In this document: in pieces, positions 1,510 to 31,931 of the stretch
Layout of the letters: the number at the start of each line of letters is the position of its first letter
Numbering within the stretch: the stretch's first letter is position 1
The notes under the pieces: generated by a model
What the model saw: the letters and a program-made list of their open reading frames with translations, nothing else
What the model was told of the DNA's origin: nothing
Database searches by the model: none
Made by a program: the position numbers and the translations under genes
Source of the DNA: Cyanobacteria bacterium FACHB-502
GTDB lineage: Bacteria; Cyanobacteriota; Cyanobacteriia; Elainellales; Elainellaceae
NCBI GenBank assembly: GCA_014695325.1
Contig: JACJNZ010000093.1
Coordinates: 21,915-53,914 of the forward strand
Reading direction: 5' to 3'
DNA: 32,000 bases

Positions 1510-1650
1510 AAGAAGAGGGTTTTGAAAGGCTCTGGTTCAGTCCCTCATCATGACATGATCCCAATATTTTTGCTTAGAATTCGTAGAACTTTGCGTGTAT
1601 TGGGGATACGATTCTGGCATCATTGAGTGCGAAGGGATAGTGGAACAGCA

Positions 1651-9250: not shown

Positions 9251-9257
9251 GAAAAGA

Positions 9258-13293: not shown

Positions 13294-15087
13294 ATGGCTG
13301 GCGAATACGAAAAGGCAATCACTATTGAGAGAGCGGTTCAGCATGTGGTGAACCGTAAGTATCTGCTGCCTGCCATTCAGCGAAAATTCACCTGGAGCAG
13401 TTCGCAAATTTGCACCCTCTTTGACTCCATCATGCGGGGGTACCCCATCAACACCTTTATGTTTTGGGAAGTCAAAGACCCTGAAGTCAAAAAGAGCTTC
13501 CGTTTCTATCAGTTCTTAGAACGTTACTGTGAGCGATTTGAAGAAAATAATCCAGAATTCAGCACTACTGGGCATGGTGATTTTCATGCGGTGATTGATG
13601 GTCAGCAGCGCCTGACCTCGCTATACATCGGCTTGAAGGGCACCTACGCCTACAAACTATCCCGCAAGTGGTGGCCCAAAACGAAGGACGATAGTATTCT
13701 TCCCCCTCGCCGCCTCTATCTAAATCTAGCCAAGCCGCTAGACGAAGAAGAAAACGAGGAGATGATGGGCTATGAATTCCGCTTTCTGACAGCTTCTCAG
13801 TGGCAAGCCGACCAAGCCAAACCAGACAAATTCTGGTTTCTGGTTGGCGATATTCTGGACTGGCCCAACGCTGAAGCCGACGATGACATCCTCGATATCG
13901 TGATGGATTTTCTGGGAAAGGCAGGACAAACCGAAAATCGTTTTGCCCGCAAGACCTTGACCCGTCTCTACTTTGCGATCCGACGAGATCAGGTCATCCA
14001 CTACTACAACGAAACCAACCAGACCATCGATCATGTGTTGGATATCTTCATCCGCACCAACCACGGCGGCACCCCTCTGGCATTTTCTGACTTATTAATG
14101 TCGATCGCCATTGCTAATTGGCGGCACGACGCTCGGCAACAGATCGATGACCTGGTAGATGCAGTGCGGTTCGGCGCAGATATGGAGTTCTCGATCAATC
14201 GAGATTTCGTACTGAAGACAGCCTTGACGCTAACCGATGCTGATGTCCGATTTAAAGTGAAGAACTTCACCAACGATCAGGTGGGCAAGGTCGAGCAAGA
14301 ATGGGAAAACATTAAAGCCTGCATTCTGGCAACTTTTCGCCTCATTCGATCCTTTGGTCTCAATGATTCATCCCTACGCGCCAAAAATGCAGCGATTCCC
14401 ATTGCTTACTATCTTTACAAGAAGCATCTCTGGACAGAAATTAATAAGCCTCTAGAGAAATACACCCCTGAACGCAAGGCTATCCGGCAGTGGCTTCATA
14501 TGTCGCTCTTGAAGGGTGTGTTTGGGGGACAAGCCGATTCGGTCCTCACCAACCTCCGAAAAGTGATCAGAGACCACCTCGCTGAGCCACTCTTTCCACT
14601 GGCTCACATCGTTGAAGAATACCGTGGGAAAAGTAAGGATCTGCGGTTCGACGACGACTTCATCGATCGCCTGCTCAAAACTCAGAAAGACGACCCTGCT
14701 TGCTTCTCAATTTTGGCTTTGATTCAGCCTGATCTGAATTACAACCTGGCTTTAGACAAAGACCATCTGCATCCTGGAATCGCGTTTTCCCCTAACCGAC
14801 TGGATACGTATGAGTTTTTAACCGATGACGCAGACCTGAGAGCCTTTTACCAGAATCCAGATTACTGGAACAGCATCGTCAATCTACAACTACTAGACGC
14901 TTCCAGAAACCGTTCTAAGCTGGATGAACCATTAAAAGACTGGTTTGCGCGGCAGACGGGGCTAACTCTAACACAGTTACACATTCCGGATGGAACCAGT
15001 TTGAACTTTGAGGACTTTCAGACGTTTTTCTGGGCGCGATCGCAGCATCTGAAACAGCTCTTCCAATCTCTTGGAGAGGTGGTCTAA
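13294..15087 (+). CDS. DUF262/DUF1524 (GmrSD/BrxU-like) putative type IV modification-dependent nuclease
   Basis: N-terminal DUF262/ParB-like NTPase motifs IQRKFTWS, LFDSIMRGYPIN and IDGQQRLTSLYIGL (DGQQR at 13597-13611). The C-terminus has a His-Me/HNH-like DKDHLHPG ... NLQLLDASRNRSK. It starts 2 nt after the pglX stop, and its stop overlaps the pglZ ATG (TAATG at 15085-15089). Confidence 0.85.
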   Translation: MAGEYEKAITIERAVQHVVNRKYLLPAIQRKFTWSSSQICTLFDSIMRGYPINTFMFWEVKDPEVKKSFRFYQFLERYCERFEENNPEFSTTGHGDFHAVIDGQQRLTSLYIGLKGTYAYKLSRKWWPKTKDDSILPPRRLYLNLAKPLDEEENEEMMGYEFRFLTASQWQADQAKPDKFWFLVGDILDWPNAEADDDILDIVMDFLGKAGQTENRFARKTLTRLYFAIRRDQVIHYYNETNQTIDHVLDIFIRTNHGGTPLAFSDLLMSIAIANWRHDARQQIDDLVDAVRFGADMEFSINRDFVLKTALTLTDADVRFKVKNFTNDQVGKVEQEWENIKACILATFRLIRSFGLNDSSLRAKNAAIPIAYYLYKKHLWTEINKPLEKYTPERKAIRQWLHMSLLKGVFGGQADSVLTNLRKVIRDHLAEPLFPLAHIVEEYRGKSKDLRFDDDFIDRLLKTQKDDPACFSILALIQPDLNYNLALDKDHLHPGIAFSPNRLDTYEFLTDDADLRAFYQNPDYWNSIVNLQLLDASRNRSKLDEPLKDWFARQTGLTLTQLHIPDGTSLNFEDFQTFFWARSQHLKQLFQSLGEVV

Positions 15088-17582
15088 TGGAAAATCGGAT
15101 TGCCCAGGCCTTAACCCGATTATTTGAGCGACATCGTATTATTTTCTGGTACGACGTTAAACGAGAATTGCGAGCTGACTTTGAGGGCTTGCAATTAGCA
15201 GGTGTTGAAAAGATCGAACTGACCAACAATGAGTTTGGGGTGAAGTACCGCATTCTGCGAGAGCAGCCGGCACAGAAGTTTTTGCTTTACCGGGAAGGAT
15301 CCCAACCCGATGACCTGGACAACTGGCTGCTCGATGTCCAACTAGCCCATGGTGAATTTCGCACTGATCAAATAGGACTGTGGCTTTCTGAACTGGAATT
15401 GGGACTCGATTTTGCTGATGTGGTGCAGGCTCACGCAGAATTTTATCGAGCCATTAAGCGCAAGGATGCTCTGAAGCGGCTGCTTAAACCAGATGACACA
15501 CCCGGCATGATTCGGCTCAAGATGCTAGCTGTGTGTGCAGGCTCAGAACCCCGCATTGATTCAGTGCTAGAAAATCTTCTAGCAGAGCTATCTGACAAGC
15601 GGGATGAAAAAATTAAACTGATTCAGCGTTGCAGTCTGGATAAGTTTCTCTGGGAACAGATGAAGCGACACTATGGCTACGATTCCAAGGAACCTGGTAT
15701 CCAAGACTTCAGCATTGAGCTATTCAAGTCCTGTTATGCCATGGGAACCGATGGACAGGTTCAACTGACCAGTGATGCGATCGTCTTTTTGAAGCGTTGG
15801 AAGGACAGCCGCCAATTTGAGGAGTCCTTTGAAACTCTTTCTGAGGAGTGTGCAGAGATCCTTGGGATTGAGCATGATTTAGGCAAGCGAGACTTTCGTG
15901 AACTGCTGGAGCTAGATTACTTCCGTTTAATTGACCAAAAGATCGTCAGCGATTTGGTACGTGCGGTAGCTTCAAGAACCGTCTCTAGTGGTGATGTGAC
16001 TCTTTGGGTGCGCCAACGACGACAAGGACATTGGTATCGTGAATTTCAGCATCTATATGAAGCTGTAGATTACGCATCCCAATTTATCCATGCTCTAGAT
16101 GAAGCGAACCTGACAATGGACTCTCTAACAGACGGCATTGAGCGCTATACCCGTTCTTGGTTTCGCATAGACCAGCTTTATCGCAAGTTTGTTTACCACG
16201 TCCGAGGCTCCGGGCAGGCTTCCTTGATGGCTACATTGAGCGACCAAATTGAGAAGCTTTATTCCAATAACTACTTACTAAAGGTGAACGATCGCTGGCA
16301 GTCCTTCGTTGATGTTGTAACGAAATGGGAAGCAGCATCTATTCCCCTGCAGAAAAACTTTTTCAAGCGTTGGGTACAACCCTTTCTAGAGAAAGACAAT
16401 AAAGTCTATGTCATCATCTCCGATGCTTTCCGGTATGAGATTGGTGATGAGTTGTTAAGCCTCATTCGCCAGGAAGATCGGTATGATGCCACGCTAGAAC
16501 CTGCCCTGTCTATGCTGCCCAGCTATACTCAGCTAGGCATGGCGGCTTTGCTACCCAATACAGTATTGACCTTGGCAGACAATCAAACTGGAACTGTAGA
16601 AGTCGATGGGCAAAGCTCACAAGGCACTGCTAACCGCATCAAAATCCTTGACCGCTCCAATCCACAACGAGCAACGGCGATCAAGGCAGAAGAACTTATG
16701 GCGCTGAATCGAGAAGACTGCCGATCGCTCGTGCGTGATCATGATGTTGTTTATATCTACCACAATCGCATCGATTCTACTGGTAAGCCAGTTACAGAAG
16801 ACCGGGTATTTGATGCAGTAGAAGAAACCCTTCAAGAGTTGATTCGATTGATTAAGAAGCTGACGGGGGCTAACGCCAGTAATCTGCTAGTGACTTCTGA
16901 TCATGGTTTTATCTATCAGAATCAAGCGATTGAGGAGAGCGACTTTGCCCAGGAAGAAGCAGAAGGTAATCAAATCCTGTTTCGAGATAGGCGCTTTGTT
17001 CTTGGCAAAGGATTGAAGGAAAAAGCAAGCTTCCGTAAGTTCCAATCATCAGAACTGGCACTGAAGGGCGATATAGAAGTCTTGATCCCTAAATCCATCA
17101 ACCGATTGCGTCTTAAGGGCTCAAGTATACGGTTTGTCCACGGTGGGGCATCACTGCAAGAAGTCGTGATTCCAGTTATTCGTATTAATAAAAAGCGACA
17201 GAGCGATATTTCTACCGTAGAAGTTGAGATTATCAGAGGTTCAAATTCAGCAATCACTTCTGGACAAGTGGCTGTTACCCTTTATCAAGCACAACCCGTA
17301 ACTGACAAAGTACAGTCGAGGAACCTGCGAGCTGGCATTTATACTCAGTCTGGAGATCTAATCTCTGATTCCCACGACCTGACATTTGATTTAACTTCAG
17401 ATAATCCAAGGGAACGGGAGCTGCAAGTTCGGTTTGTGCTGACCCGCAAGGCTGATGACGCTAACGGACAAGAGGTCATTCTGCGACTCGATGAAAAGCT
17501 GACAGGCACCTCACATTACAAAGAGTACAAATCACTTCGGTATATGATGCGACGGTCATTTACCAGTGATTTTGATTTTTAG
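15087..17582 (+). CDS. pglZ: BREX alkaline-phosphatase-fold protein PglZ
   Basis: N-terminus RIIFWYDVKRELRADFE. PglZ domain motifs VYVIISDAFRYEIGDEL and LLVTSDHGF. The 831 aa size and position are typical. Confidence 0.93.
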   Translation: MENRIAQALTRLFERHRIIFWYDVKRELRADFEGLQLAGVEKIELTNNEFGVKYRILREQPAQKFLLYREGSQPDDLDNWLLDVQLAHGEFRTDQIGLWLSELELGLDFADVVQAHAEFYRAIKRKDALKRLLKPDDTPGMIRLKMLAVCAGSEPRIDSVLENLLAELSDKRDEKIKLIQRCSLDKFLWEQMKRHYGYDSKEPGIQDFSIELFKSCYAMGTDGQVQLTSDAIVFLKRWKDSRQFEESFETLSEECAEILGIEHDLGKRDFRELLELDYFRLIDQKIVSDLVRAVASRTVSSGDVTLWVRQRRQGHWYREFQHLYEAVDYASQFIHALDEANLTMDSLTDGIERYTRSWFRIDQLYRKFVYHVRGSGQASLMATLSDQIEKLYSNNYLLKVNDRWQSFVDVVTKWEAASIPLQKNFFKRWVQPFLEKDNKVYVIISDAFRYEIGDELLSLIRQEDRYDATLEPALSMLPSYTQLGMAALLPNTVLTLADNQTGTVEVDGQSSQGTANRIKILDRSNPQRATAIKAEELMALNREDCRSLVRDHDVVYIYHNRIDSTGKPVTEDRVFDAVEETLQELIRLIKKLTGANASNLLVTSDHGFIYQNQAIEESDFAQEEAEGNQILFRDRRFVLGKGLKEKASFRKFQSSELALKGDIEVLIPKSINRLRLKGSSIRFVHGGASLQEVVIPVIRINKKRQSDISTVEVEIIRGSNSAITSGQVAVTLYQAQPVTDKVQSRNLRAGIYTQSGDLISDSHDLTFDLTSDNPRERELQVRFVLTRKADDANGQEVILRLDEKLTGTSHYKEYKSLRYMMRRSFTSDFDF

Positions 17583-17595
17583 GGGCAGGTGAATC

Positions 17596-19662
17596 ATGAC
17601 TGATCTTGACCAAAAGATAAATACTTTTTTTCCAGGACTCGTTGTTCGGAAAGATCTTGTCAAGACTGTCAAGGGAAATGCGATCGTCCCATCTTATGTC
17701 CTGGAATATCTGCTAGGTCAGTATTGTGCGACCAATGACGAAGCCTCCATTCAAACGGGAATAGAAACTGTCAAGGAAATATTACTTAAGCACTACGTAC
17801 ATAGAAACGAGGCTGGACTTGTACGCTCCAACATTAAGGAAAGAGGTCGCTACAAAGTTATTGATAAAATCAGCGTTGCCTTAAATGACAAAGCTGATGT
17901 CTACGAGGCTGAGTTCGCGAATCTTGGCATCAAGAAAGTGCTGGTTGATTCTGGCACAGTTAAAGTCCATCCCAAATTATTAGTCAGTGGGGTCTGGTGT
18001 ATTGCAGACATCGAATATGAGTTCACCGAAAATACAAATACCAGCCCCTGGATCCTGTCTACACTGAAACCTATCCAATTATCTCACTTCGATTTTGAGG
18101 GTTATGTAGAGGCTCGGAAGCAGTTCACGACAGATGAGTGGATTGATCTGCTCATTCAGAGCATTGGCTTCAATCCAGATTTATTTGGTAAGCGGAGCAA
18201 GCTGATGCAGCTGATCCGTCTAATCCCTTTCTGTGAACGCAATTACAACCTGATTGAGCTTGGACCCAAGGGAACCGGCAAGTCCCATATTTACTCTGAA
18301 TTTTCACCTCACGGCATCCTGCTCTCTGGTGGTGAAGTCACTGTCCCTAAACTTTTTGTCAACAACGCTTCTGGGAAGGTCGGCTTGGTTGGCTATTGGG
18401 ACGTCGTAGCCTTTGATGAGTTTGCTGGGAAACAGAAGCGGGTCGATAAGTCCCTTGTGGACATCATGAAGAACTACATGGCAAACAAGTCTTTCTCGCG
18501 TGGTGTCGAAACGCTGGGTGCAGAAGCCTCAATGGTCTTTGTAGGGAACACACAACACACTGTTCCTTACATGCTTAAACATTCTGATCTGTTTGAAGAG
18601 CTGCCCAGTAAATTCTACGATTCTGCTTTCCTTGATCGCATTCACTTCTACATTCCCGGATGGGAAGTAGACATCATTCGAGGTGAAATGTTTTCAAGTG
18701 GCTATGGATTCGTAGTAGACTACCTCGCTGAGATCCTCCGGGCATTTAGGAGTCGTGATTATTCAGATCGCTACAAAGAGCAGTTCTCCTTATCTTCAGA
18801 CATTTCTACTCGAGATAAGGATGGAATTAATAAAACTTTTTCCGGCTTAATGAAGATACTCTTTCCACATAATGAAGCTACTACACAGGAGGTTGAGGAA
18901 CTCCTTAAGTTTGCAATTGAAGGACGGAAGCGGGTTAAAGATCAGCTGATGCGTATTGATTCAACCTACTCAACTGTCCAATTTATCTATTTTGATAGCT
19001 CAAACCACTTCAAATCAGTTACCACTTTAGAGGAGGAAGAGTATCCTCATTACTACCACAGGATTGCAGATGAAACTAGCATCGAAGATGCTGTGCTTGC
19101 TGACAACTCTCTACAGGCAACGTCTGTTTCTCAGAATGCTACTGTACTAACGAATGTTGACCTGAAGGAAAAACATCTCACTTTTCAGGAGAATCAACGG
19201 GGCGTTTCTTTTGAAACGCTGTTTGGCTCCTACTTGCAGGGGGTAAAAAGAGTTATTGTTACTGACCCTTACATACGTCTCTTCTACCAAGTGCGTAACT
19301 TTATGGAACTCCTCGAAACAATTGTGAAATACAAGAATTGTGAGGAAGAAGTTTCTGTTCACCTAGTTACAGCAGAAGACGATTTCAAGGGTACTCAGCA
19401 ACAGGAGTACTTTCAAAGAATTCGGGAATCTTGTAGCACAGTAGGCATAGATTTCACGTGGAAGTTTGACGAAAGCGGAACAATCCATGCCCGACACATA
19501 CTAACGGACCATGGGTGGAAGATTCTTTTAGATCGAGGTTTAGACATCTTCCAACACTACGATATGAATGATGCTTTTGCTTTTACCAATCGGCTTCAGC
19601 AATTCAGAGCATGCAAAGCTTTCGAGATAACTTATGTTAAAGACCAAGTTTTGAAAGATTAG
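17596..19662 (+). CDS. brxL: BREX AAA+ (Lon-like) protein BrxL
   Basis: The N-terminal region LVVRKDLVKTVKGNAIVPSYVLEYLLGQYCA...YKVIDKISVALN...VYEAEFANLGIK matches BrxL. P-loop ELGPKGTGKSHIY and Walker B VVAFDEF are present. The C-terminal ~160 aa carries DPYIR...IHARHI...GWKILLDRGLDIF, which resembles an MIT_C/PLD-like fold (see findings). Confidence 0.9.
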   Translation: MTDLDQKINTFFPGLVVRKDLVKTVKGNAIVPSYVLEYLLGQYCATNDEASIQTGIETVKEILLKHYVHRNEAGLVRSNIKERGRYKVIDKISVALNDKADVYEAEFANLGIKKVLVDSGTVKVHPKLLVSGVWCIADIEYEFTENTNTSPWILSTLKPIQLSHFDFEGYVEARKQFTTDEWIDLLIQSIGFNPDLFGKRSKLMQLIRLIPFCERNYNLIELGPKGTGKSHIYSEFSPHGILLSGGEVTVPKLFVNNASGKVGLVGYWDVVAFDEFAGKQKRVDKSLVDIMKNYMANKSFSRGVETLGAEASMVFVGNTQHTVPYMLKHSDLFEELPSKFYDSAFLDRIHFYIPGWEVDIIRGEMFSSGYGFVVDYLAEILRAFRSRDYSDRYKEQFSLSSDISTRDKDGINKTFSGLMKILFPHNEATTQEVEELLKFAIEGRKRVKDQLMRIDSTYSTVQFIYFDSSNHFKSVTTLEEEEYPHYYHRIADETSIEDAVLADNSLQATSVSQNATVLTNVDLKEKHLTFQENQRGVSFETLFGSYLQGVKRVIVTDPYIRLFYQVRNFMELLETIVKYKNCEEEVSVHLVTAEDDFKGTQQQEYFQRIRESCSTVGIDFTWKFDESGTIHARHILTDHGWKILLDRGLDIFQHYDMNDAFAFTNRLQQFRACKAFEITYVKDQVLKD

Positions 19663-20727: not shown

Positions 20728-21846
20728 TTACAGCCGTTTCAGCCAGTACTCTAGTGCTAAATCTGTCAGCAAGTCCCAAAGGATTGTCTGTGTGGCATCC
20801 TCTATAAATTCTGGGAGAGAGCGGAAGTATTTCTCAATCTCTAACGGTATGTGCGAATTGAGAGCACCATCTCTACGCAGTCTCATTTGCATGACGTGTT
20901 TACCCGCCATATACCGATCATTCCCGAAGTCAAAAATAACTTCATGCTCTCTGAGCTTTTCGCTCTCAGGCTGTAGCTTGGTTCTCCACTCTGCAAGCAG
21001 TTTCATAGTTCCCATCCCTTCTGGCACATACCCGATGTGGGTTATATCCTGCCCATTACTCCACAGTCGCATTCGTCCAACTATTTGTCTTCTATTTGTC
21101 AGAAGATTGGGTCCGGGCAACCACAAGAAAAGAACCGGCTTGAGGGGATTCCTTGAAAACCTGATTTCTGCACAAAGTTTCTTCTGCCCGGCTCCGTAGG
21201 TAATACTTGCCGTTTCCACAATCTCCTGTATTTGAGGGTGAAAGGTCATCAGTTTTGCACGCACCTTTAGCATCTGTTCTTGCTCTGAAGGAGTACAGGC
21301 TCCTAAAGAATCAAGCAGCCGTCTGGGAGGAGGTGGAACATTGTCAAAAAGATGGGAAAGATCGGTTTCTTGATACAGAATGACAATTTTTCTATATTGG
21401 TTTTCGCCCTCCGTGAGGCAAAGGAGGAACGTGTCGTTTTCCTGAATAACCTTAACAACAAGGAACTCAATCAGAAGCTTGTTGAACTTACGATCAATTA
21501 AGTTATGGCGATGGAAGCTTGGTGCAAGCGCAATCAAACGAACTGGCTTGTCGTAATCGACTCGGTCTTGAAACGGCTTCACTTCAAGCATGTTGGCGTA
21601 GTACCGCGTTAACTGCTGAACTACATAGCGATCCTCTGTGTTTTTCAACTCTAGGATGGTCAGCGAGCGGTCACTGCTTACCGCTACAATGTCACAAATC
21701 TCACCGTTAATACCTAGCTGACGCGCAAGAGGGTCCAAGCTAAACAATTGGTTCAAATTCGCCCATATAAAGTCTTCTAAAACGGCTTCGCTAGCAAATT
21801 CCCACCCATTGCCTGTTTTTCGTAAAGCAACATTAGTTTGTAGCAT
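20728..21846 (-). CDS. 372-aa hypothetical protein with an N-terminal PD-(D/E)xK (NucS/DUF91-like) motif
   Basis: Long ORF starting at an ATG. The N-terminus EDFIWANLNQLF...GEICDIVAVSSDRSLTILELKNTEDRYVVQQLTRYY gives D...E-x-K spacing like restriction-endonuclease-fold proteins. I recognise nothing in the C-terminal 250 aa. Confidence 0.7.
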   Translation of the reverse strand: MLQTNVALRKTGNGWEFASEAVLEDFIWANLNQLFSLDPLARQLGINGEICDIVAVSSDRSLTILELKNTEDRYVVQQLTRYYANMLEVKPFQDRVDYDKPVRLIALAPSFHRHNLIDRKFNKLLIEFLVVKVIQENDTFLLCLTEGENQYRKIVILYQETDLSHLFDNVPPPPRRLLDSLGACTPSEQEQMLKVRAKLMTFHPQIQEIVETASITYGAGQKKLCAEIRFSRNPLKPVLFLWLPGPNLLTNRRQIVGRMRLWSNGQDITHIGYVPEGMGTMKLLAEWRTKLQPESEKLREHEVIFDFGNDRYMAGKHVMQMRLRRDGALNSHIPLEIEKYFRSLPEFIEDATQTILWDLLTDLALEYWLKRL

Positions 21847-21951
21847 TTGCTGTGTTTCGCTTCAGGTCTTTCCAGATTCGGTGTTTTGACATCCAGGAGT
21901 GTAATTCAAATTTAGTTCATGCTTATGGGATTGGAGCCAGCGAATCAGCAA

Positions 21952-22023
21952 GGGATTGCGACAGGATACATGTAAAAACCTACAAGATGAGGTTTAATTC
22001 CTTATCTTGCAAGCATTTCAGCG
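21952..22023 (+). repeat. Repeat family A, copy 2 (partial)
   Basis: GGGATTGCGACAGGATACATGTAAAAACCTACAAGAT matches copy 1 with 4 mismatches over 37 nt. Homology becomes patchy further on (TTAATT..TGCAAG...CAGCG). Confidence 0.7.
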
Positions 22024-22201
22024 TTTGCTTCTTTCGATATTCGATAAATGCTTAAATTCCTTAGGTAGTACATGTTTGGGCTATTTTTGGACTAAGTACT
22101 ACTCAAAAATGACTAGTACACACCCGCTTTTTTAGCCTCTTTGATGGCTGAAACCCTCATTCTTTCGTTAAGTAGTTGCATTACATAGCAGCTACACGGG
22201 A

Positions 22202-22297
22202 TGTTCATTCCATCTAATGCTGAGTCGCCAGAAGTTATGAAAATTAAGGCTTAGAGGGCTATCTTGCAGGTTTTTACACGTATCCTGTTCCAATCCC
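22202..22297 (-). repeat. Repeat family A, copy 3 (inverted relative to copies 1 and 2)
   Basis: The reverse complement reads GGGATTGGAACAGGATACGTGTAAAAACCTGCAAGATAGCCCTCTAAGCCTTAATTT...ATGGAATGAACA, colinear with 20545-20640. Confidence 0.8.
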
Positions 22298-22389
22298 CTG
22301 ATTGTCTTCAAAGGCTTGAATAGAGGAACTTTGAGAGAATCGGAAGAGAAAGTTGTCTTAGAATTGTCAGATAGAGATAAGTGAAGTTT
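22295..22389 (+). repeat. Repeat family B, left arm (~95 nt) of an inverted pair
   Basis: The reverse complement (AACTTCACTTATCTCTATCTGACAATTCTAAGACAACTT...CAAGCCTTTGAAGACAATCAGGG) aligns with 24050-24143 at roughly 85 percent identity by eye. Confidence 0.8.
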
Positions 22390-22484
22390 GTTCTACATAA
22401 GCAGCCTCAGTATGAACCCTAGATTGGAATGAAGCAATTTGTCACTACTCGATTGAGGGGTTAAGCGGCAGTACGAACGGAGCC

Positions 22485-23072
22485 ATGAGGGCAGATATGC
22501 CGTGCCGAACGATCTGTTGGACACCGATTTGGAACAAGGAGCGAGAGGGGATAGGGCTGGAGCATCTCCTTCTAACTGAGCATACAGCTGACAGCGTCGT
22601 GCTCGCGTTTGACGAAGAGCACGGCCCATTCCGCCTCACCTATCGCCTGAGATGGAACGAATCGTGGCAGCTCCGCACTGCAGATCTAGTCGTTGCCATG
22701 CAGCACTCCACTAAATCGCTAAGTCTGCAAACGGACGGACAAGGACAATGGCGAGACGGTGACGGACAGTCTAATGCAAAGCTGGATGGCTGCATGGATA
22801 TCGATATCTGGCCCACTCCTTTCACTAACAGCTTCCCCATTCGCCGCGAGCCGCTGGCTATTGGAGAGCGGCGGCAGTTCCGCATGGTGTGGATTGCCGC
22901 GCCGGATCTAACCGTGCAGCCACAACCGCAGGCTTATACGCGGCTGTCCGATCGGCTCTACCTGTTCGAGAATCTTGACGGTAGCGGATTCACGGCGCAG
23001 CTACCTGTGGACGAAGATGGTATCGTGTTAGACTACCCGGACCTATTCCAGCGGGTGATAGCTAGCAAGTGA
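22485..23072 (+). CDS. Putative glycolipid-binding domain protein (DUF1089-like)
   Basis: About 190 aa with W....EGIGLEHLLL..., YRLRWNESWQLRTADLVV, IDIWPTPFTNSFPIRR and VDEDGIVLDYPDLFQRV. This layout matches what I remember of the 'putative glycolipid-binding' family. Coding GC is high. The start may be ATG 22497. Confidence 0.65.
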   Translation: MRADMPCRTICWTPIWNKEREGIGLEHLLLTEHTADSVVLAFDEEHGPFRLTYRLRWNESWQLRTADLVVAMQHSTKSLSLQTDGQGQWRDGDGQSNAKLDGCMDIDIWPTPFTNSFPIRREPLAIGERRQFRMVWIAAPDLTVQPQPQAYTRLSDRLYLFENLDGSGFTAQLPVDEDGIVLDYPDLFQRVIASK

Positions 23073-23185
23073 GTAGCAAGAGGGATACTTGAGCACTTAT
23101 CCTGATTACACCCCAAACCTCACAACTCAACTAGTTCCTAAATCAATCGGTCTGACTAATTCACCTCACCGAATGGGTGTGATCG

Positions 23186-23848
23186 TCAACAGTCCGGGTC
23201 ATACTCATCGTCATCTTTCCGGCTCGTACATCCACCGCACGAGACCGTAGCAGACCAATCGACGACAGTGTCGGGCCAACCATATAACTGCCCTGGTACA
23301 AGCGCCAGGGAATTCAACCAGTCTACAAACGGCAAGAAGTAGGAAGCATTAGAATTACTGCGATGCCCCTGAGTCTGGTGGCAAATAGGTCGGAGATGCT
23401 CTGCCAGCCTGATTGCTCTATTGCCGAAATAATAGAAGTTGCGTGAAATCAGTACGTTCTTGCCCCGTAGATCAGTATCCATATTTCCCGGTCCATGTAC
23501 GCTTCGACGTTGCGTAGGGCGACCATTCGAGAAATTGTAGATGCAGTCCCCTAACCGTTCATGAAGCGCGAGGCTCTCTACGTTTGGGATGCGGTGAGTC
23601 CAGCGAGTCGGGGCAAAATAATCGTAGTCCTGGAGTGAAAGCACCTCCTCCACCTGCATGGCATACACCAGACGACCGCTGAGATCACCGCTGGGTGCTT
23701 TCTTTGAACCAAGGCCCGCAACCCAATCGCCGACCTGGGCAGTTCGACGAATGCCGGGCTTGCAGATGGCAAGTGAGCACATTCCGTAAAAGGGATTTGG
23801 GGCAGCACCGTCATCTATCGGGATAGTGTACGTGAAAAGGCGGGGCAT
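23186..23848 (-). CDS. Cys-rich conserved hypothetical protein, possibly Nmad2-like (nucleotide-modification-associated domain 2)
   Basis: From ATG 23848 the protein starts MPRLFTYTIPIDDGAAPNPFYGMCSLAICKPGIRRTAQVGDWVAGLGS. The GxAPNPFxGxC(T/S)LAxCKPxIRR...GDW motif is one I associate with Nmad2-type proteins, from memory and unverified. The ATGs at 23875 and 23959 are alternative starts. Confidence 0.6.
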   Translation of the reverse strand: MPRLFTYTIPIDDGAAPNPFYGMCSLAICKPGIRRTAQVGDWVAGLGSKKAPSGDLSGRLVYAMQVEEVLSLQDYDYFAPTRWTHRIPNVESLALHERLGDCIYNFSNGRPTQRRSVHGPGNMDTDLRGKNVLISRNFYYFGNRAIRLAEHLRPICHQTQGHRSNSNASYFLPFVDWLNSLALVPGQLYGWPDTVVDWSATVSCGGCTSRKDDDEYDPDC

Positions 23849-24049
23849 AGCATATGGCGATGAATAAGTTTCCATAGGGAGCAAGCTGAACAGTTTGTGA
23901 CAATGACCCATCAATTTCAGCTTGAATTTTCCCCACCGTATTCCCGATTCAGGAAGCACACCGGTTGTTCCGGTTTATTCAAACCTTTTGTGTCGCGTGG
24001 GGAAGTTAGGCATAGTCGAAGGAGAAGTTGTGTTGATTTCAGGTAGAGA

Positions 24050-24565: not shown

Positions 24566-25175
24566 TTTCTTCAGACTTGAGCAAGCTGAGAGATTCGCTT
24601 GCTCTCTAATGTCTCTCACAGTTAGCAAAAGCTCTTTAAAGTTAATAGGTGAGTCTGCGATCGAATCACCTTTCGGTGGGCAACGGTAAAGGAGAAGCAG
24701 GAGACGCGATCGGTCCCGGTGTCCCTAGAATTGGAGTAATTGCTGAAGGGGTATCGGAGTAAATCTCTGGGCAAAAAAGCCTCTCGCCGTTGCAGCGGTA
24801 TCTTGATGTGACTGAGAGGGATTAAGGCATAGCGCGCTGCTCCGCAGATACCGCAAGGGTCGTGACAACGCGTTTTCGACCCTAATAGGTTTTGCTTGTC
24901 CTTTGGCAATTCCACCTGCTCAGCCTACAAACATTGCCGAAAATGCCTCATTTTGGCTATGTTTTCGACAAGCTCAGCTTGTTCAAATTTGCGCAAATTC
25001 TTGTAGTGACAGTAAATATTCTCCTTAAAGAAAGTCTTGAGTATTCTAGGTCTCCCAAGTACTTCAAATAAAATTGCTTCAAGGTGCTAGTGATTGTTGT
25101 CGATGACTGAAGTCGTTTTCCTATCACTGATGTAGGGCTGACGATAGAACCTATTAGAAGTAAGGAATTAAGAAG

Positions 25176-26390
25176 GTGACAACTATACTCTTTGTGCATG
25201 GAACTGGGGGTAGAAAAGGAGCCTATGCTGAAACTTTCAAACAGATGGAGCAATCTCTTCAAAAACGCAGGCCTGATGCTAAGTTGGTTCCCTGCCTCTG
25301 GGGCGATCCTTTAGGGGCAAAACTTAATGCTGGAGGAGCTTCCATCCCTACCTATGAGGAATCACAAGGAGGGCAGGAGCTAACCCTTGAAGAGGAAAGT
25401 GTTCGCCTATGGGAAAATCTTTACAAAGATCCGTTTTACGAAATGCGGTTATTAGGGTTAAGACCCCTAAAAGCGCAAAGATCTGTCCCTGGTCAAGTCA
25501 CGCCTTCCCAGCAACTGAGAAGTAGAGCCGAATCCCTCACAGCCAATGTAGAACTACAGTCAAAGCTAAACGATTTAGGAATTGGTGCTGTTTTCAAACA
25601 GGCTTGTGAAGTGATCACGGGCATTAACTCTAGACCATTCGGTCGGTTACTAGAGACAACCTCTCGACCTTTAGATGGCGATTATGCTGCGATCGCAAGA
25701 GCGATTGTCTCTGTATCTCGAATTCTGTGCAAGGAACAGGAAATGTATCCCTGGCTTTTGGTAGACAATCATTTGCGGGATGAAGCAGTTGACGCAATCC
25801 AGCAGACTCTGACTCGTAACGAAACTTCAAGAGGTTTCCTTTTAGGCTGGATTAAAAGCCAGCTTACAGGGTTAGCTTTAGGAGTTAGTACGAATAAGAT
25901 TAGCCGGAAGCGAGGGGCTGTGATGGATGGAACCTATCCATTTGCAGGAGACATCTTGATCTATCAAGCTAGAGGCAAAAAGATCCGTGAGTTTATCCGG
26001 AGCCAGATTGAAAATGAGCAAATTCAGCCACCTGTTGTTCTGCTTGCCCATAGCTTGGGTGGTATTGCCTGTGTTGATTTGCTAATCGAACACGACTTAC
26101 GAGACAAGGTTAAATATCTTGTTACTGTTGGATCGCAGGCACCATTCTTCTATGAAATTGATGCGTTACACACTTTGTCTTATGGTGAGCTATTGCCCAA
26201 GCACTTTCCAAAATGGCTCAATATTTACGATTTAAGGGATTTTTTGAGTTATATCGGTAATTGCGAGGGGATCTTTCCCGGAAAACTCACAGATGTTCCA
26301 GTAGATAATAGGCAACCCTTTCCAGAAGCTCATGGGGCTTACTGGGCTAACGAACAGACCTGGGACGAGATTGAAAAGGTACTGCCATGA
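25176..26390 (+). CDS. Alpha/beta-hydrolase-fold serine hydrolase (lipase/esterase-like), 404 aa
   Basis: GTG start preceded by AAGAAGG. The N-terminal strand ILFVHGTGG, the nucleophile elbow VVLLAHSLGGIACVDLL, then YDLRDFLS and PEAHGAYW are consistent with a Ser-Asp-His triad. Confidence 0.75.
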   Translation: MTTILFVHGTGGRKGAYAETFKQMEQSLQKRRPDAKLVPCLWGDPLGAKLNAGGASIPTYEESQGGQELTLEEESVRLWENLYKDPFYEMRLLGLRPLKAQRSVPGQVTPSQQLRSRAESLTANVELQSKLNDLGIGAVFKQACEVITGINSRPFGRLLETTSRPLDGDYAAIARAIVSVSRILCKEQEMYPWLLVDNHLRDEAVDAIQQTLTRNETSRGFLLGWIKSQLTGLALGVSTNKISRKRGAVMDGTYPFAGDILIYQARGKKIREFIRSQIENEQIQPPVVLLAHSLGGIACVDLLIEHDLRDKVKYLVTVGSQAPFFYEIDALHTLSYGELLPKHFPKWLNIYDLRDFLSYIGNCEGIFPGKLTDVPVDNRQPFPEAHGAYWANEQTWDEIEKVLP

Positions 26391-29300
26391 CTACCGCTGC
26401 CATCCAGCCCATTAATGTTTATGCCTTGATCGTGGGGATCGAAAAATATCAAGCAGGTTCGGACTATGACTTAGATGGACCTGCTAACGATGCTTTGAAG
26501 TTTGCTAATTGGCTTTTAGCTCACGGAGTTGAACCTGGGCATATTTACCTATTTTTATCGCCCACAGATAGAAATCAAGGAATACTATCCTCAGCAGAGG
26601 ATAAAGGTTTGATGCCTTCACCTGCAACCCATGACCGGATCGCTCGCATCATCCGTGCTCGATTAACGAATGAAAGGAGCCGAGGCGATCTGCTCTATGT
26701 CTTCTGGGGTGGACACGGGATTATTACAAAGATGGGGATGACTACCCGACGTCTCTTTTTTGCAGATACTGATGATGATACTAAATGGAATCTAGACTTT
26801 AATTCATTGGTAGATGCGCTCAGCACCTCAGCGTATGGGGCGGGTTTCTCAAAACAGATATTTTTGATTGATGCTTGTGCTAATGCATTCTATGAAGGAG
26901 TGGCTCAGACGAGGCAAGGCGTTGCTGCTGGAGTCGAGTTCGCAGCTAATGGTGATCTCGATCAGGCTGAACAATTCATCTTATTTGCTTCGCCAGAGTA
27001 TGAGGTGGCGACCAATAACTCTAATACAGGTACAGGACATTTTTCTCAAGCTGTATTAGAGATTTTTCAGGAACAACCGCTATTGCCTAATATGAAAGCA
27101 ATAGCAGAGCAAATTCAATCAGATTTCATTGAAAAACAGAAGGTATTGCCTTCATACTGGATCAAACTTCCAAATAAGCAGATTCAATGTTTGTCAAAAA
27201 AATCTTCAGTGTTTGGTCATGCTAATAACATACCCCCTAGCAGCGTTAAGGAGTTTGTCGGGCGTGAGTCAAAGCTAGAGGAGTTGCATCAGATATTAGA
27301 AGAGAATGGTGGAGCCGAAATTTGCCACATAGAGGGAATGGGTGGCGTAGGCAAAACTGAGCTTGCTAAACAGTATGGACTAAAATATCTTTCGGATTAT
27401 ACAGGCGGTATTTGTTGGATAGATGCCAAAAATTCAGATATAGAAAGAAAGATTGTCAATTTTGCTGTTGAGAATTTTGGGGCAAAATTTGATGAAGTTT
27501 CAGGAAGCAAAGTCAACTATTGTTGGAATACTTGGCAGAAGTGGAGAGAGGGAAATGTTCTGATAGTATTTGATGATGTCACTAACTTCACCCAAATTAA
27601 GCCATACCTACCACGCCAAAACTCACAATTCTTTGTATTAATTACTACTCGAAAGACATTAGGAGCATCGCTTGTGTCAATTCCCTTGGAGCCACTCGAT
27701 CGTGATGCATCTATACAGTTACTAAAGTCCTTAATTGGAGATGAACGAGTTAATAGAGAATCGGTAGCTGCTAACGAACTCTGTGCATGGTTAGGTGACC
27801 TGCCGCTAGGATTGGATTTGGCTGGCAGATATCTATTACGAATGAGGAGATTAAGCCTAGAGCGCTTACTATATCTGCTTAGGGAAAAGTACTCCCTCAG
27901 GCATGGATCTATGAGATCAACTGACCCAACAATGGAATATCAGACAGGTGTAGCTGCTGCCTTTGACTTAAGTTGGGATGAATTATCTGAACCAGCCCAA
28001 AAACTGGGATATATATTAGCTTTATTTGACCTAGGCCCAGTTCCGTTAACACTGGTAGAAGAAGCCATTAATGTATCCTCTCCTAATGAAACTGCTAACC
28101 TAATCTTAGAAGATATTAGAGCAGATTTTTTAGATGGGGTAGATGCTTCAAATATAGTTGCAGAACTTGAAGTTCTGAACTTAATTAGAGATGAAGATGT
28201 GAATAATCAAATAGTTCGTTTACATGAGTTGATTCGAGAATTCTTTCGAGGTAAGCGAGATGAAGAATCATATACCGAAATTGCGACTGATCTTCAGCAT
28301 GAATTTTCAAGAGGCATGCTTGCAATAGCAGAACAAGCTCTAGAAGCAAGCAACTTTTCCCGACCTCATTTAAGGGCGCTCCTAAACTTTCTAATTCGTG
28401 TACCGAAAGCAGAGCAGATAGATACAACTCTTCTCGATTTTCTAGATCTACTGTCTCGTTACTATAGTTTTCAGCAATACATTTATGACACTGGTTATTT
28501 AGAAAGTGCAATCGCAAAATTAGAGGGAGCTAAGACTTATCTGCAGGGATTAGAAGTCCCTAATGAAAAGGCAAAAGTGCTTGTTGGTAAGCTACTTGGT
28601 CATGCTTACTACGCTAATCCTGGTCAACACAGACTTCAAGCTATTCAAAGCATGCTTGAAGCTCAAGGGATAGCAAACAGTGCTGATCAAGCAGATGTAA
28701 CTGGGGCTGATCATGAACTTTGGCTTTGGTATCAAATATTTCTACTTGACCATGTTCACAATCAACTCTCCAAGCTTCCTGAACCCGTCCTAAACTTAAC
28801 TGCTGAAGAGCTAGAAGCACAGATAGCAGAGTTACTTCCTACTAGCCTAGAAGACATAAATGTTCCGCCAGAGTCGGAAGATGTATTACCATCCATACTG
28901 CGTGCGGCTCACTACTGGGGACATCGAGGTAATCAAGTCACTGACCAACTACAACGCCTATTATTTAGTTCTCTCTCAACTGTTGAACCTGCTGAGATAG
29001 AGAGTTTATCTGAGCAAGGTATCCGCTATTATTCCCTTGCAGCAACTCTAAGGGCTGCAAACTTTCGCTTGTCATTTCCCCAAGAATTTCAACAGCATCT
29101 TGCTATTACCTTGGTGGAAGTACCCCATTTACCACAATGGTTATTAAACTGGAACCCTTCAACAAACTCGATAGAGTTTGAACGTTTTACAAGTGCATCA
29201 CAAGCCGTTGGTGATATTGCACATCAATATAGAGGTCTAGCAACAGTTCAGCTTTGGAAATATTTCTATGAGGTTTCTAGAGGTTTAGAAAGCACATTAC

Positions 29301-29614
29301 TTGACGAAGCCCGTATTGTTCTAGATATTGCATCTAGGCTTTGGGAGGAAGCTAAGTCTCTTCTTGCACCGGGTGAGCAAGTAATTAAATATTACATGTG
29401 GATGGCTAGTTCAGAGATGATGCTATTGCTATTAGAGAGGTACAACTCAAACGATCAGTTTCCTACCCAATCAGAGGTGGAAGAGCAGGCATCTGCACAG
29501 ATAGATGAGTTACAAGAGCAGTATGGTTTAGTCTATGAGTGGGCAAAGGACAAAGTTTTGGATTTAGCTAGGGGATTTCACAATTTGCTCTCTAACTTGC
29601 AACGTTCGCCCTAA
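26387..29614 (+). CDS. Caspase-like (peptidase C14) - NB-ARC STAND NTPase - helical-repeat protein, 1075 aa
   Basis: Caspase core: YALIVGIEKY, His in VFWGGHGII (H110, 26714-26716), Cys in IFLIDACANAF (C164, 26876-26878). NB-ARC: FVGRESKLEEL, P-loop GMGGVGKTELAKQY, Walker B VLIVFDDV, LITTR, GDLPLGLDLAG. The C-terminal ~500 aa look helical/TPR-like. The ATG overlaps the upstream stop (ATGA at 26387-26390). Confidence 0.85.
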   Translation: MTTAAIQPINVYALIVGIEKYQAGSDYDLDGPANDALKFANWLLAHGVEPGHIYLFLSPTDRNQGILSSAEDKGLMPSPATHDRIARIIRARLTNERSRGDLLYVFWGGHGIITKMGMTTRRLFFADTDDDTKWNLDFNSLVDALSTSAYGAGFSKQIFLIDACANAFYEGVAQTRQGVAAGVEFAANGDLDQAEQFILFASPEYEVATNNSNTGTGHFSQAVLEIFQEQPLLPNMKAIAEQIQSDFIEKQKVLPSYWIKLPNKQIQCLSKKSSVFGHANNIPPSSVKEFVGRESKLEELHQILEENGGAEICHIEGMGGVGKTELAKQYGLKYLSDYTGGICWIDAKNSDIERKIVNFAVENFGAKFDEVSGSKVNYCWNTWQKWREGNVLIVFDDVTNFTQIKPYLPRQNSQFFVLITTRKTLGASLVSIPLEPLDRDASIQLLKSLIGDERVNRESVAANELCAWLGDLPLGLDLAGRYLLRMRRLSLERLLYLLREKYSLRHGSMRSTDPTMEYQTGVAAAFDLSWDELSEPAQKLGYILALFDLGPVPLTLVEEAINVSSPNETANLILEDIRADFLDGVDASNIVAELEVLNLIRDEDVNNQIVRLHELIREFFRGKRDEESYTEIATDLQHEFSRGMLAIAEQALEASNFSRPHLRALLNFLIRVPKAEQIDTTLLDFLDLLSRYYSFQQYIYDTGYLESAIAKLEGAKTYLQGLEVPNEKAKVLVGKLLGHAYYANPGQHRLQAIQSMLEAQGIANSADQADVTGADHELWLWYQIFLLDHVHNQLSKLPEPVLNLTAEELEAQIAELLPTSLEDINVPPESEDVLPSILRAAHYWGHRGNQVTDQLQRLLFSSLSTVEPAEIESLSEQGIRYYSLAATLRAANFRLSFPQEFQQHLAITLVEVPHLPQWLLNWNPSTNSIEFERFTSASQAVGDIAHQYRGLATVQLWKYFYEVSRGLESTLLDEARIVLDIASRLWEEAKSLLAPGEQVIKYYMWMASSEMMLLLLERYNSNDQFPTQSEVEEQASAQIDELQEQYGLVYEWAKDKVLDLARGFHNLLSNLQRSP

Positions 29615-30428: not shown

Positions 30429-31025
30429 CTATTTTTGAAACTTCGTCACGGGACTATCTTCGGTGATATTGCTCAATTCAGAACTGATGTAGCGATAGTA
30501 GGTCGGACGGCTAATTCCAAGGTGTTCACAAATGGACGTGACGGATCGCTTCGGGTCTGCTGCCAGCGATCGCCCAATCTCAATCTCTTGAGGTGTCAAC
30601 TTCTGCTGTCGTCCCCCTTTCCGACCTCTGGCTCTTGCCGCTTGTAGCCCTGCTTGAGTTCGTTCCCGAATTAGATTCCGCTCAAACTCCGCCAGTGCGC
30701 CAAACATGTGAAAGATGAGTTTTCCACCGCTTGTGGTCGTATCAATGTTCTCCTGAAGCGATCGCAGTCCAATTTTGCGCTTTTCCATCTCCTCAACCAG
30801 CGCAATCAAATCCTTAAGCGATCGCCCCAATCGGTCAAGCCGCCAAGCGACAAGCGTATCCCCTTCCCTTGCGAAGTCAAAGGCTTTCTTCAGTCCAGGG
30901 CGATCAGCTTTAGTACCACTCATTTTGTCGGAAAAGATCTTTTCACACCCTGCGGTTTGAAGCGCGTCTTGTTGCAAGGCAAGATTTTGGTCATCCGTTG
31001 AAACGCGTTGATAGCCGATTAGCAT
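30429..31025 (-). CDS. Small serine recombinase (resolvase/invertase family)
   Basis: MLIGYQRVSTDDQNLALQ (catalytic Ser), DTLVAWRLDRLGRS, FGALAEFERNLIRERT and a C-terminal HTH (SICEHLGISRPTYYRY); 198 aa. Confidence 0.92.
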   Translation of the reverse strand: MLIGYQRVSTDDQNLALQQDALQTAGCEKIFSDKMSGTKADRPGLKKAFDFAREGDTLVAWRLDRLGRSLKDLIALVEEMEKRKIGLRSLQENIDTTTSGGKLIFHMFGALAEFERNLIRERTQAGLQAARARGRKGGRQQKLTPQEIEIGRSLAADPKRSVTSICEHLGISRPTYYRYISSELSNITEDSPVTKFQK

Positions 31026-31469: not shown

Positions 31470-31931
31470 TCACTTTGCGAGACCTCTGATAATAACCTTG
31501 ATGGCTTGAATAGCAGATCTTTTTGCTCGCTGCCCAGAAATCCTTCCCTCAACATCTGAATCGAACGGATCAAGAAGCTTTCGATTTCCAGAACGGAAAC
31601 ATCTGATAGCCAGAAATGGATAACATCCCTCCTTGTAAGGGTCTTTGATTTCTACATCAACCATGCGCTTAAAATGTGTTTCAGTTTGAGCAAGTGACAA
31701 TGACTCAAATTCAACTAATTTTTTAATATTTAATAAATTCTGTAATTTGAGTATTTGTTTTGGATATTCAAACCAATTCCACTTTAAATGCCAGCCAACT
31801 CTCTGACAAAAAACATCGAAAACTTCTAATTCATCTCTACCCTCGGACAGTTTTAACCAAATGTCTTTCTGAACATTAAATCCATATAATCCTCCACTAT
31901 AATTGATCCATAAGTCATTAATTATATTCAA
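31470..31931 (-). CDS. GUN4-like domain protein (153 aa, TTG start as given in the ORF track)
   Basis: LWINYSGGLYGFNVQKDIWLKL......FCQRVGW resembles the GUN4 domain signature (W..yS.G.fGFsvQk.IW...vGW). An in-frame stop lies just upstream, so this is a stand-alone domain. The start codon is uncertain. Confidence 0.55.
   Translation of the reverse strand: MNIINDLWINYSGGLYGFNVQKDIWLKLSEGRDELEVFDVFCQRVGWHLKWNWFEYPKQILKLQNLLNIKKLVEFESLSLAQTETHFKRMVDVEIKDPYKEGCYPFLAIRCFRSGNRKLLDPFDSDVEGRISGQRAKRSAIQAIKVIIRGLAK

Follow-up and report, generated by a model that had tools for sequence, protein, structure and literature searches.

A pair of overlapping genes in a 32,000 nt stretch of DNA from Cyanobacteria bacterium FACHB-502 (contig JACJNZ010000093.1) encodes a 404 aa alpha/beta-hydrolase and a 1075 aa protein in which a caspase-like protease domain is joined to an NB-ARC NTPase and a helical C-terminal region. 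The whole of this stretch is referred to below as the window, and all coordinates are positions within it, on the + strand. We regard it as reasonably probable that the two genes constitute a protease-effector cell-death module built on an NLR-like switch, in which the caspase activates the hydrolase from a zymogen. By analogy with a related pair studied by Evans et al. (2025, PMC12642450), the hydrolase is most likely both the substrate of the protease and the terminal effector, rather than a second effector acting in parallel, as a preliminary description of the locus had proposed. Systems of this kind are already known, computationally from 2020 and biochemically from a 2025 preprint; the window adds a member fused to NB-ARC with a rare sensor, a recent swap of cassettes, and predicted cleavage sites for a subfamily of hydrolases around 400 aa long.

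The hydrolase gene (25176..26390) begins with a GTG codon and the longer gene (26387..29614) with ATG, the stop codon of the former overlapping the start codon of the latter in the sequence ATGA (26387-26390), consistent with translational coupling. The open reading frames (ORFs) and their overlap are exactly those given in the preliminary description, and every motif that it named was found at the position implied.

Two motifs, FVHGTGG (aa 6-12) and AHSLGG (aa 291-296), mark the hydrolase: the first contains the oxyanion-hole HG pair, His8-Gly9 (25197..25202), and the second the nucleophile, Ser293 (26052..26054), of the HSLGG elbow, with the triad completed by the acid Asp352 (26229..26231) and by His386 (26331..26333). 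All of these residues, as well as Asp355, are invariant across the 32 homologues aligned, which have identities of 51-88%, and the intact Ser293/Asp352/His386 triad is as expected of members of hydrolase-caspase modules. Pfam alpha/beta-hydrolase families matched only below threshold, around the nucleophile elbow, and a comparison of the sequence profile with the PDB gave no match better than E 0.1. The AlphaFold2 model (predicted local distance difference test score, pLDDT, of 72.8) has a small alpha/beta core split by a mostly helical insert of about 200 residues; its best Foldseek matches were weak (E 7e-3, target template modelling (TM) scores of 0.4-0.5), and were to minimal lipases of the Bacillus subtilis LipA type. 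The insert (aa 46-256; 25311..25943) falls between strand beta4 and helix alphaB, separating the N-terminal beta-alpha-beta unit that bears the HG motif from the helix leading to the nucleophile strand. It comprises a helical domain, the helices of which span residues 71-213, between two low-confidence segments, pLDDT being below 50 at aa 46-69, 72-79 and 217-255, and we propose it as a candidate autoinhibitory region. The family is large: a word-indexed search returned at least 1982 matches, and an exhaustive profile search yielded 1889 representatives at 50% clustering, 615 of them with E<=1e-30; the best 150 of the 1889 are all approximately 400 aa long.

The N-terminal part of the longer protein (aa 1-266; 26387..27184) is a metacaspase-like Peptidase_C14 domain, the dyad of which is formed by His110 (26714-26716), within WGGHG (aa 107-111), and Cys164 (26876-26878), within IDACAN (aa 161-166). 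Domain-wise scanning was necessary to detect it with Pfam: residues 1-285 scanned alone scored 43.4 bits against PF00656 (cut-off 21.4), a match missed by the full-length scan at E<=0.1. The PADLOC 'caspase' model matched the protein with E=3.9e-15, and the nearest solved structures to the domain are the metacaspases TbMCA2 (E 5e-7) and AtMC4, relatives of the Arg/Lys-specific type. Downstream lies an NB-ARC NTPase domain (PF00931; Pfam range aa 294-481, 27266..27829; 48 bits against a cut-off of 23.5), with a P-loop, GMGGVGKT (aa 317-324; 27335-27358), a Walker B motif, LIVFDDV (aa 392-398; 27560-27580), an LITTR motif (aa 418-422; 27638-27652) and a GLPLAL-like motif, DLPLGLDLAG (aa 471-480; 27797-27826). 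Judged by these motifs and by the structural model, the protein is a STAND NTPase of the NB-ARC (AP-ATPase) clade with C-terminal repeats. Its last 515 or so residues (aa 561-1075; 28067..29611) were modelled (pLDDT 81.6, predicted TM score 0.82) as an all-helical, solenoid-like array of about 22 helices, presumed to be the trigger-sensing domain. This region matched no Pfam repeat family, and no specific relative was found among solved structures, the best match having E 5e-3 and a TM score of at most 0.35. Pfam, PADLOC and the structural model thus agree on the arrangement of caspase-like dyad, complete NB-ARC module and helical C terminus originally put forward. The PADLOC scan matched neither Avs1-5 nor other named anti-phage STAND profiles, 'caspase' being the only model retained; a match to Cas9 in the same scan was dismissed as spurious.

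The association between hydrolase and caspase extends well beyond this locus. Eighty hydrolase loci were retrieved, almost all of them cyanobacterial, and 75 had enough downstream DNA for comparison; a caspase-domain ORF lies directly downstream of the hydrolase on the same strand in 70 of the 75 (93%), bearing out the expectation that the two genes would be syntenic in relatives. The hydrolase is not a housekeeping family with an unrelated conserved context. The genes overlap in 29 of the 70 loci, the most frequent overlap being of 4 bp, like that of the window. Plasmids from Pseudonocardia, Rhizobium, Sinorhizobium, Bradyrhizobium and Agrobacterium carry the pairing too, the hydrolases of the Rhizobiales plasmids being 376-434 aa forms, and a hydrolase-like gene in Hymenobacter is flanked by two genes for CHAT-domain proteases. 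Degeneration of the caspase dyad or the P-loop in homologues, which the preliminary description would have counted against its reading, is not what is seen: of the 69 partner caspases, all those covering the relevant columns keep the His/Cys pair, and the P-loop is intact in 42 of 44 NB-ARC partners, as it is, together with Walker B, in the window protein.

What follows the caspase domain is far more variable, including an EAD1 adaptor (an effector-associated domain, EAD), NACHT with HEAT, NB-ARC with TPR, kinase, VMAP-C and FGE-sulfatase modules, such that STAND counts as one of seven or more exchangeable modules at the C terminus. What is conserved is the combination of hydrolase and caspase, not that of hydrolase and STAND. 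The proposed unit of hydrolase and caspase-STAND therefore holds with regard to the conserved pair, but not with regard to the STAND component, which is swappable and is lacking from the nearest relatives. Pairwise identities of hydrolases and of caspase domains are strongly correlated (r=0.95, Mantel p~0.001, 63 loci), although physical linkage alone would yield this too, and the nearest-neighbour order is identical for the two proteins despite the differing C-terminal modules. Hence the correlation shows inheritance of the pair as one unit whilst sensors were exchanged, which is no proof of protein-protein interaction. Direct caspase-NB-ARC and caspase-NACHT fusions are common beside hydrolases of this family.

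In about 36 loci (L019-L080), mostly from Nostoc but also from Anabaena, Scytonema and Stigonema, the STAND part is usually split, with a caspase-NB-ARC protein of 476-496 aa (usually 482 aa) followed by a second gene (e.g. L021, 8365-11603); in a minority the region is one undivided ORF of some 950-1190 aa. Because the second ORF of the split Nostoc loci overlaps the first in a different frame, a programmed frameshift was considered; it was rejected, as a separate Shine-Dalgarno sequence precedes the second gene and stop and start overlap as ATGCTAG, which makes the arrangement a coupled pair of genes.

The earlier attribution of the locus to the nucleoside triphosphate-dependent conflict systems is upheld by the literature: Kaur, Burroughs, Iyer and Aravind (eLife 2020, PMC7159879) describe this pairing, reporting that caspase domains in conflict systems always have a neighbouring alpha/beta-hydrolase gene, and note a related hydrolase in GAP1 GTPase systems. 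Alpha/beta-hydrolases are listed as effectors hydrolysing membrane lipids in a 2021 paper from the same group (PMC8195603). Biochemical evidence comes from Lysobacter capsici AZ78, where LcCaspase cuts LcHydrolase after Arg73 and Arg117 (Evans et al., bioRxiv November 2025, PMC12642450). These sites are Arg-Gly (R-G) motifs, cleaved between the two residues and conserved in 161 homologues; the cuts separate an N-terminal fragment of 8.1 kDa from a C-terminal one of 19.8 kDa, the N terminus of the latter being assigned by the authors to the putative lid. Co-expressing the N-terminal fragment with the C-terminal one was toxic in Escherichia coli, and nucleic acids were excluded as the substrate. 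The view that the two-gene arrangement had not been characterised experimentally is consequently outdated for the class of module, but holds for the hydrolase form of approximately 400 aa and for the versions fused to NB-ARC. The link between the window hydrolase and the LcHydrolase family is an indirect one, which may be drawn through the VMAP context of its nearest relatives, as described by Kaur et al. in the work that Evans et al. cite for the family.

Two R-G pairs occur in the window hydrolase within the low-confidence segment at residues 217-255: Arg246-Gly247, part of an RKRG sequence (25911..25916) and the candidate main cleavage site, and Arg219-Gly220 (25830..25835), the candidate first site. 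Arg246 is present in 100% of 191 homologues, being followed by Gly in 144 (75%) and by Leu or Phe in 40. It is kept in homologues from Pseudonocardia (Actinobacteria) and Hymenobacter (Bacteroidota), and in most, if not all, of the distant representatives aligned, one of which has Thr rather than Gly as the next residue; the Rhizobium sequence has an alignment gap at this position. Residues 219-220 are R-G in 91 and K-G in 10 of the 191 homologues, with conservation in the window's own clade, and Arg219 is the weaker of the two predictions. Because the invariant Arg246 with its Gly247, together with Arg219-Gly220, matches the reported cleavage motif in a poorly modelled linker between beta4 and alphaB, the hydrolase is most likely a substrate of the caspase. 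Sequence conservation, the model and the Arg/Lys-specific relatives of the caspase domain fit cleavage after Arg246 and, probably, a second cut after Arg219, and the predicted fragments would be of approximately 24, 3 and 17 kDa. We infer that the cut positions in the Lysobacter enzyme correspond to the same beta4/alphaB position as the insert of the window hydrolase.

The mechanism that we envisage has five steps. The C-terminal solenoid would bind a trigger, probably a phage or mobile-element protein, whereupon the NB-ARC NTPase would exchange or bind nucleotide and oligomerise, gathering the N-terminal metacaspase-like domains and activating them by proximity; these events are modelled on the general behaviour of STAND proteins and on the sister modules in Evans et al. 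The caspase would then cut the co-translated hydrolase after basic residues of the beta4-alphaB linker, between Arg246 and Gly247 of the RKRG sequence and probably also after the Arg219 of an SRG sequence, as suggested by the Lysobacter precedent and the R-G motifs, the exact sites in the window protein being predicted. With autoinhibition relieved, the Ser293/Asp352/His386 hydrolase would attack a substrate of the ester type (perhaps a lipid), killing or arresting the cell before the invader spreads; the toxicity of the fragments of the Lysobacter relative is the precedent for this last step, to which the substrate and the anti-phage role are conjectural additions.

A more specific version of these events is speculative and, in our judgement, rather unlikely. 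In it, a single obligatory cut at Arg246 would free the whole N-terminal helical domain of about 150 aa, the role of which might extend beyond inhibition, for instance to directing the enzyme to a membrane, thylakoid or cellular, whilst the solenoid would sense a cyanophage or plasmid protein; as part of the same joint reading, the hydrolase form of around 400 aa, here mainly cyanobacterial, would be licensed otherwise than the 295 aa Lysobacter enzyme. Were this true, the locus would provide the first known case in cyanobacteria of a lipase-type executioner deployed by an NLR-like sensor.

The closest hydrolases, with 83-88% identity, are paired with a caspase-EAD protein of about 350 aa that has no STAND region. 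These five-gene operons also encode an EAD1-VMAP-C protein, a MoxR-like AAA ATPase and a large effector protein with FGE-sulfatase or gamma-PGA-hydrolase domains. VMAP-C, MoxR-type AAA and vWA components with EAD coupling were found in loci L002, L006, L089 and L090, the EAD1 adaptor of these relatives being carried by the caspase and pairing with EAD1-VMAP. Pfam and PADLOC scans of the window ORFs detected no VMAP-C, MoxR-type AAA, vWA or EAD domains; an adaptor shared between the hydrolase and the STAND protein, envisaged in the preliminary description, was likewise not found, the hydrolase itself having no EAD in these scans. In Leptolyngbya sp. FACHB-711 (L089), the VMAP system, which carries the nearest hydrolase of characterised context, is followed by genes with FGE-sulfatase domains and by a bAvd/reverse transcriptase pair (15697-17215), which looks like a diversity-generating retroelement beside putative sensor genes.

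Similarity to these relatives at the DNA level (74-81%) starts at 24977-25138 and ends at 27046-27184, extending at most from about 200 nt before the hydrolase start codon to around codon 266 of the long gene. Beyond this point the resemblance is to a different lineage: the NB-ARC protein P0121 is 57% identical to the long protein, from residue 280 onward only, and its N-terminal 111 residues are unrelated to caspases. The family of the solenoid is rare, with 24 homologues, nearly all of which are annotated as, or match, NB-ARC proteins; at 690-900 aa they are too short for an additional caspase domain, and at the locus of one of them neither a hydrolase nor a caspase is nearby. None of the 24 is a second case of a caspase joined to this type of solenoid sensor. 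From the end of homology near 27184, the start of similarity to P0121 at residue 280 and the caspase-less solenoid homologues, the window protein can be recognised as a recent chimera, with a junction at aa ~266-280 (27185..27226). By these sequence comparisons, an NB-ARC/sensor module of another lineage has taken the place of an EAD adaptor behind the hydrolase-caspase cassette and its leader. The G+C content is 0.414 in the STAND part and 0.45 in both the hydrolase and the window as a whole. This natural chimera indicates that cassette and leader can move from an adaptor-coupled, five-gene MoxR-vWA-VMAP system to a direct NB-ARC fusion.

The leader, or promoter region, upstream of the hydrolase (24977..25175) contains a Shine-Dalgarno-like sequence, AAGGAA/GAAGG, ahead of the GTG start. 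In an alignment of the window with L088, L089 and L002, these approximately 200 nt are conserved whichever sensor follows the caspase, the leader moving together with the cassette; its similarity reflects the common ancestry of the nearest relatives. A structured RNA or riboswitch was considered and rejected, RNAalifold giving 0 consensus pairs across 11 relatives, and an Rfam scan of the leader found no family, the only match being a chance one to a snoRNA (E 0.069). A scan for sigma-70 promoters and terminators was uninformative, promoter-like sites being fewer than in shuffled sequences and none lying upstream of the hydrolase.

The wider surroundings of the pair resemble a piece of a mobile replicon carrying a defence island. 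The window contains a complete type 1 BREX system (BrxA, BrxB, BrxC, PglX, PglZ and BrxL), the 3' end of brxL being at 19662, upstream of the hydrolase gene and 5.5 kb from it, which accords with the setting originally described. Genes for mobility and partition comprise an IS240-type transposase, ParA/ParB (1627-3184) and a serine resolvase (30429-31025); the position of ParA/ParB and the resolvase on either side of the island suggests a mobile replicon, such as a plasmid. The plasmids of PLSDB contained no near-identical DNA.

Further defence candidates sit among the BREX core genes (8087-9803 and 13294-15087). Between brxC and pglX there is an ABC/AAA_21 ATPase with a 181 aa partner, matching PADLOC HEC-02A/B (E 2e-109 and 9e-73), and between pglX and pglZ a GmrSD-like protein matching HEC-05 (E 8e-211). 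BrxL (17596-19662) fits the PADLOC BrxL model end to end over its full length, and its final 150 residues or so match the Pfam MIT_C family, a phospholipase D-like domain (E 9e-45), perhaps no more than the ordinary C terminus of BrxL by another Pfam name. A DUF1016/YhcG gene (41-1509; PADLOC PDC-S02) abuts the IS240-family DDE transposase; it has probably been shortened by this insertion, as its PD-(D/E)XK nuclease domain covers just the first 41 of 157 profile positions. Three genes lie between BREX and the hydrolase-caspase pair (20728-23959), the first encoding a 372 aa protein with a weak match to PDC-S18 (E 2e-7) and the others proteins of the Glycolipid_bind (PF06475) and Nmad2 (nucleotide-modification-associated) types. 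Towards the end of the window (31470-31931), a 153 aa ORF matches only positions 59-110 of the 141 in the GUN4 profile and is perhaps a fragment of a gene; cyanobacterial fusions of GUN4 to caspases are mentioned by Kaur et al. (PMC7159879).

Several observations weigh against the activation of the hydrolase by the caspase in the manner proposed. The hydrolase model is of no more than moderate confidence (pLDDT 72.8), with weak fold matches (E 7e-3), and it places Arg246 in a predicted low-confidence helix rather than in a clear loop. The equivalence of the candidate sites with Arg73 and Arg117 of LcHydrolase rests on topology and motif only, and that enzyme is of about 295 aa (8.1, 4.7 and 19.8 kDa) against the 404 aa of the window protein, which has an extra helical domain of about 150 aa. 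Basic-Gly pairs occur at 219-220 in only ~53% of the family, and the Leu or Phe following Arg246 is found mainly in the Nostoc NB-ARC clade, so a two-site R-G rule is not universal. The hydrolase lacks an adjacent caspase in five loci. As the window's fusion is of recent origin, with no second case found among the 24 sensor homologues, its function is without an evolutionary test; for the hydrolase module, moreover, Evans et al. report no phage trigger, defence assay or substrate (PMC12642450).

One alternative is that the caspase domain is itself the executioner, broadly degrading host or phage proteins once the NB-ARC switch has fired, with the hydrolase an accessory that might, for example, regulate, serve as a co-sensor or act enzymatically on a product of proteolysis. 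An effector-less caspase-like protease of E. coli protects against the phages PhiV-1, T4 and T2, protection that is lost in a C131A mutant (PMC12642450); Kaur et al. say merely that hydrolase and caspase 'operate together' (PMC7159879), and the substrate of the hydrolase was not established by Evans et al. Yet this clade of caspases retains the hydrolase in 93% of loci, the invariant linker Arg fits the reported cleavage logic, and the cut fragments of the characterised relative kill cells on their own, all of which make an executioner caspase distinctly unlikely. It is unlikely, too, that the same protease-activated hydrolase serves some other purpose, be it stress-induced cell death, kin recognition or allorecognition, or the maintenance of a plasmid by post-segregational killing, despite the tie drawn by Kaur et al. 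between such systems and a multicellular habit (PMC7159879), the link between cyanobacterial caspase homologues and stress-induced death made in part of an orthocaspase review (PMC7475262), the carriage of the locus by an element bearing ParA/ParB, insertion sequence (IS) and resolvase genes, and the fact that no trigger is reported for any hydrolase module. The pair lies in a defence island with BREX, HEC-02, HEC-05 and PDC-S02; sister modules on STAND sensors (MBL, Pepco and EACC1) respond to phage proteins; and the relatives that belong to this family of sensors are NB-ARC proteins standing alone, in contexts that vary.

We consider it very improbable that the window copy is a non-functional product of recombination, arising from a recent union of the cassette with a foreign NB-ARC/sensor gene. 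The junction at aa 266-280, the combination of caspase and sensor, unique among the 24 sensor homologues, and the lower G+C content of the STAND part could all be read in this way, but both ORFs are unbroken over 4.4 kb, the catalytic and nucleotide-binding motifs are all intact, the 4-bp coupling overlap has been kept, and equivalent caspase-NB-ARC and caspase-NACHT fusions are common beside this hydrolase. Activation of the hydrolase by the caspase on an NB-ARC switch is the reading that we favour.

Amongst known systems, the closest likeness is to LcHydrolase/LcCaspase, likewise a pair of alpha/beta-hydrolase and caspase-like protease in which the protease is fused to variable sensors, including STAND NTPases. 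Both hydrolases have a lipase/esterase-like fold, the Arg-specific R-G cleavage demonstrated for the Lysobacter pair is predicted for the window, and in each the sites would appear to fall after the N-terminal beta-alpha-beta unit and ahead of the half bearing the nucleophile. The fragments predicted here, of approximately 24, 3 and 17 kDa, differ from those of LcHydrolase (8.1, 4.7 and 19.8 kDa), as does the conservation of the sites, which are both maintained in the LcHydrolase family whereas the second basic-Gly site is not family-wide in that of the window. The host is cyanobacterial, whilst Evans et al. call their hydrolase family widespread in Actinobacteria and Pseudomonadota. In this context the positions Arg219 and Arg246 are concrete predictions for a large subfamily of hydrolases approximately 400 aa long.

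With the VMAP (MoxR-vWA) ternary systems (PMC7159879), the window shares the same hydrolase-caspase effector cassette and the same upstream leader, the hydrolases of the VMAP operons being 60-88% and their caspase domains ~65% identical to those of the window. It differs in having no EAD adaptor, VMAP, MoxR or vWA component, the caspase being fused directly to the NB-ARC sensor; hence an adaptor-coupled, five-gene system has been reduced to two genes, which makes the module easy to reconstitute.

The general plan, in which sensor repeats and a STAND NTPase are combined with a protease at the N terminus, is also that of Avs and bNACHT, of the MBL-, Pepco- and EACC1-protease modules and of the EACC1-caspase 'System 4' of Kaur et al., and the STAND-protease systems likewise have a small upstream gene encoding a latent toxin freed by the protease, as is predicted here. 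The toxin of those systems is a nuclease or a pore-former, whereas that of the window is a serine hydrolase; the NTPase is of the NB-ARC/AP-ATPase type rather than of the Avs1-5 or NACHT families; and the sensor has no specific relative among solved structures. The protease domain itself, metacaspase-like with an HG...DxC dyad, resembles the cyanobacterial orthocaspases and other metacaspase-like Peptidase_C14 proteins, and the FGE-sulfatase-caspase fusions of the relatives and the GUN4-caspase fusions of Kaur et al. belong to the same orthocaspase repertoire. Orthocaspases are treated as stand-alone cell-death proteases in the relevant part of the review (PMC7475262), whereas the domain in the window is half of an obligate pair with a hydrolase.

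Bacterial gasdermin operons (Johnson et al. 2022, cited by Evans et al., PMC12642450) similarly have an upstream gene for a latent killer, followed by a caspase-like protease with variable sensors, and are activated by cleavage at specific sites, as is predicted for the window. The effectors differ in fold and in how they kill: gasdermin forms a pore upon removal of a C-terminal peptide, whereas the putative killer encoded in the window is an enzyme, predicted to be cut internally and probably twice. The logic of the class, which couples a sensor NTPase by way of a caspase-like protease to a latent killer enzyme, parallels that of the caspase-activated effectors of animals.

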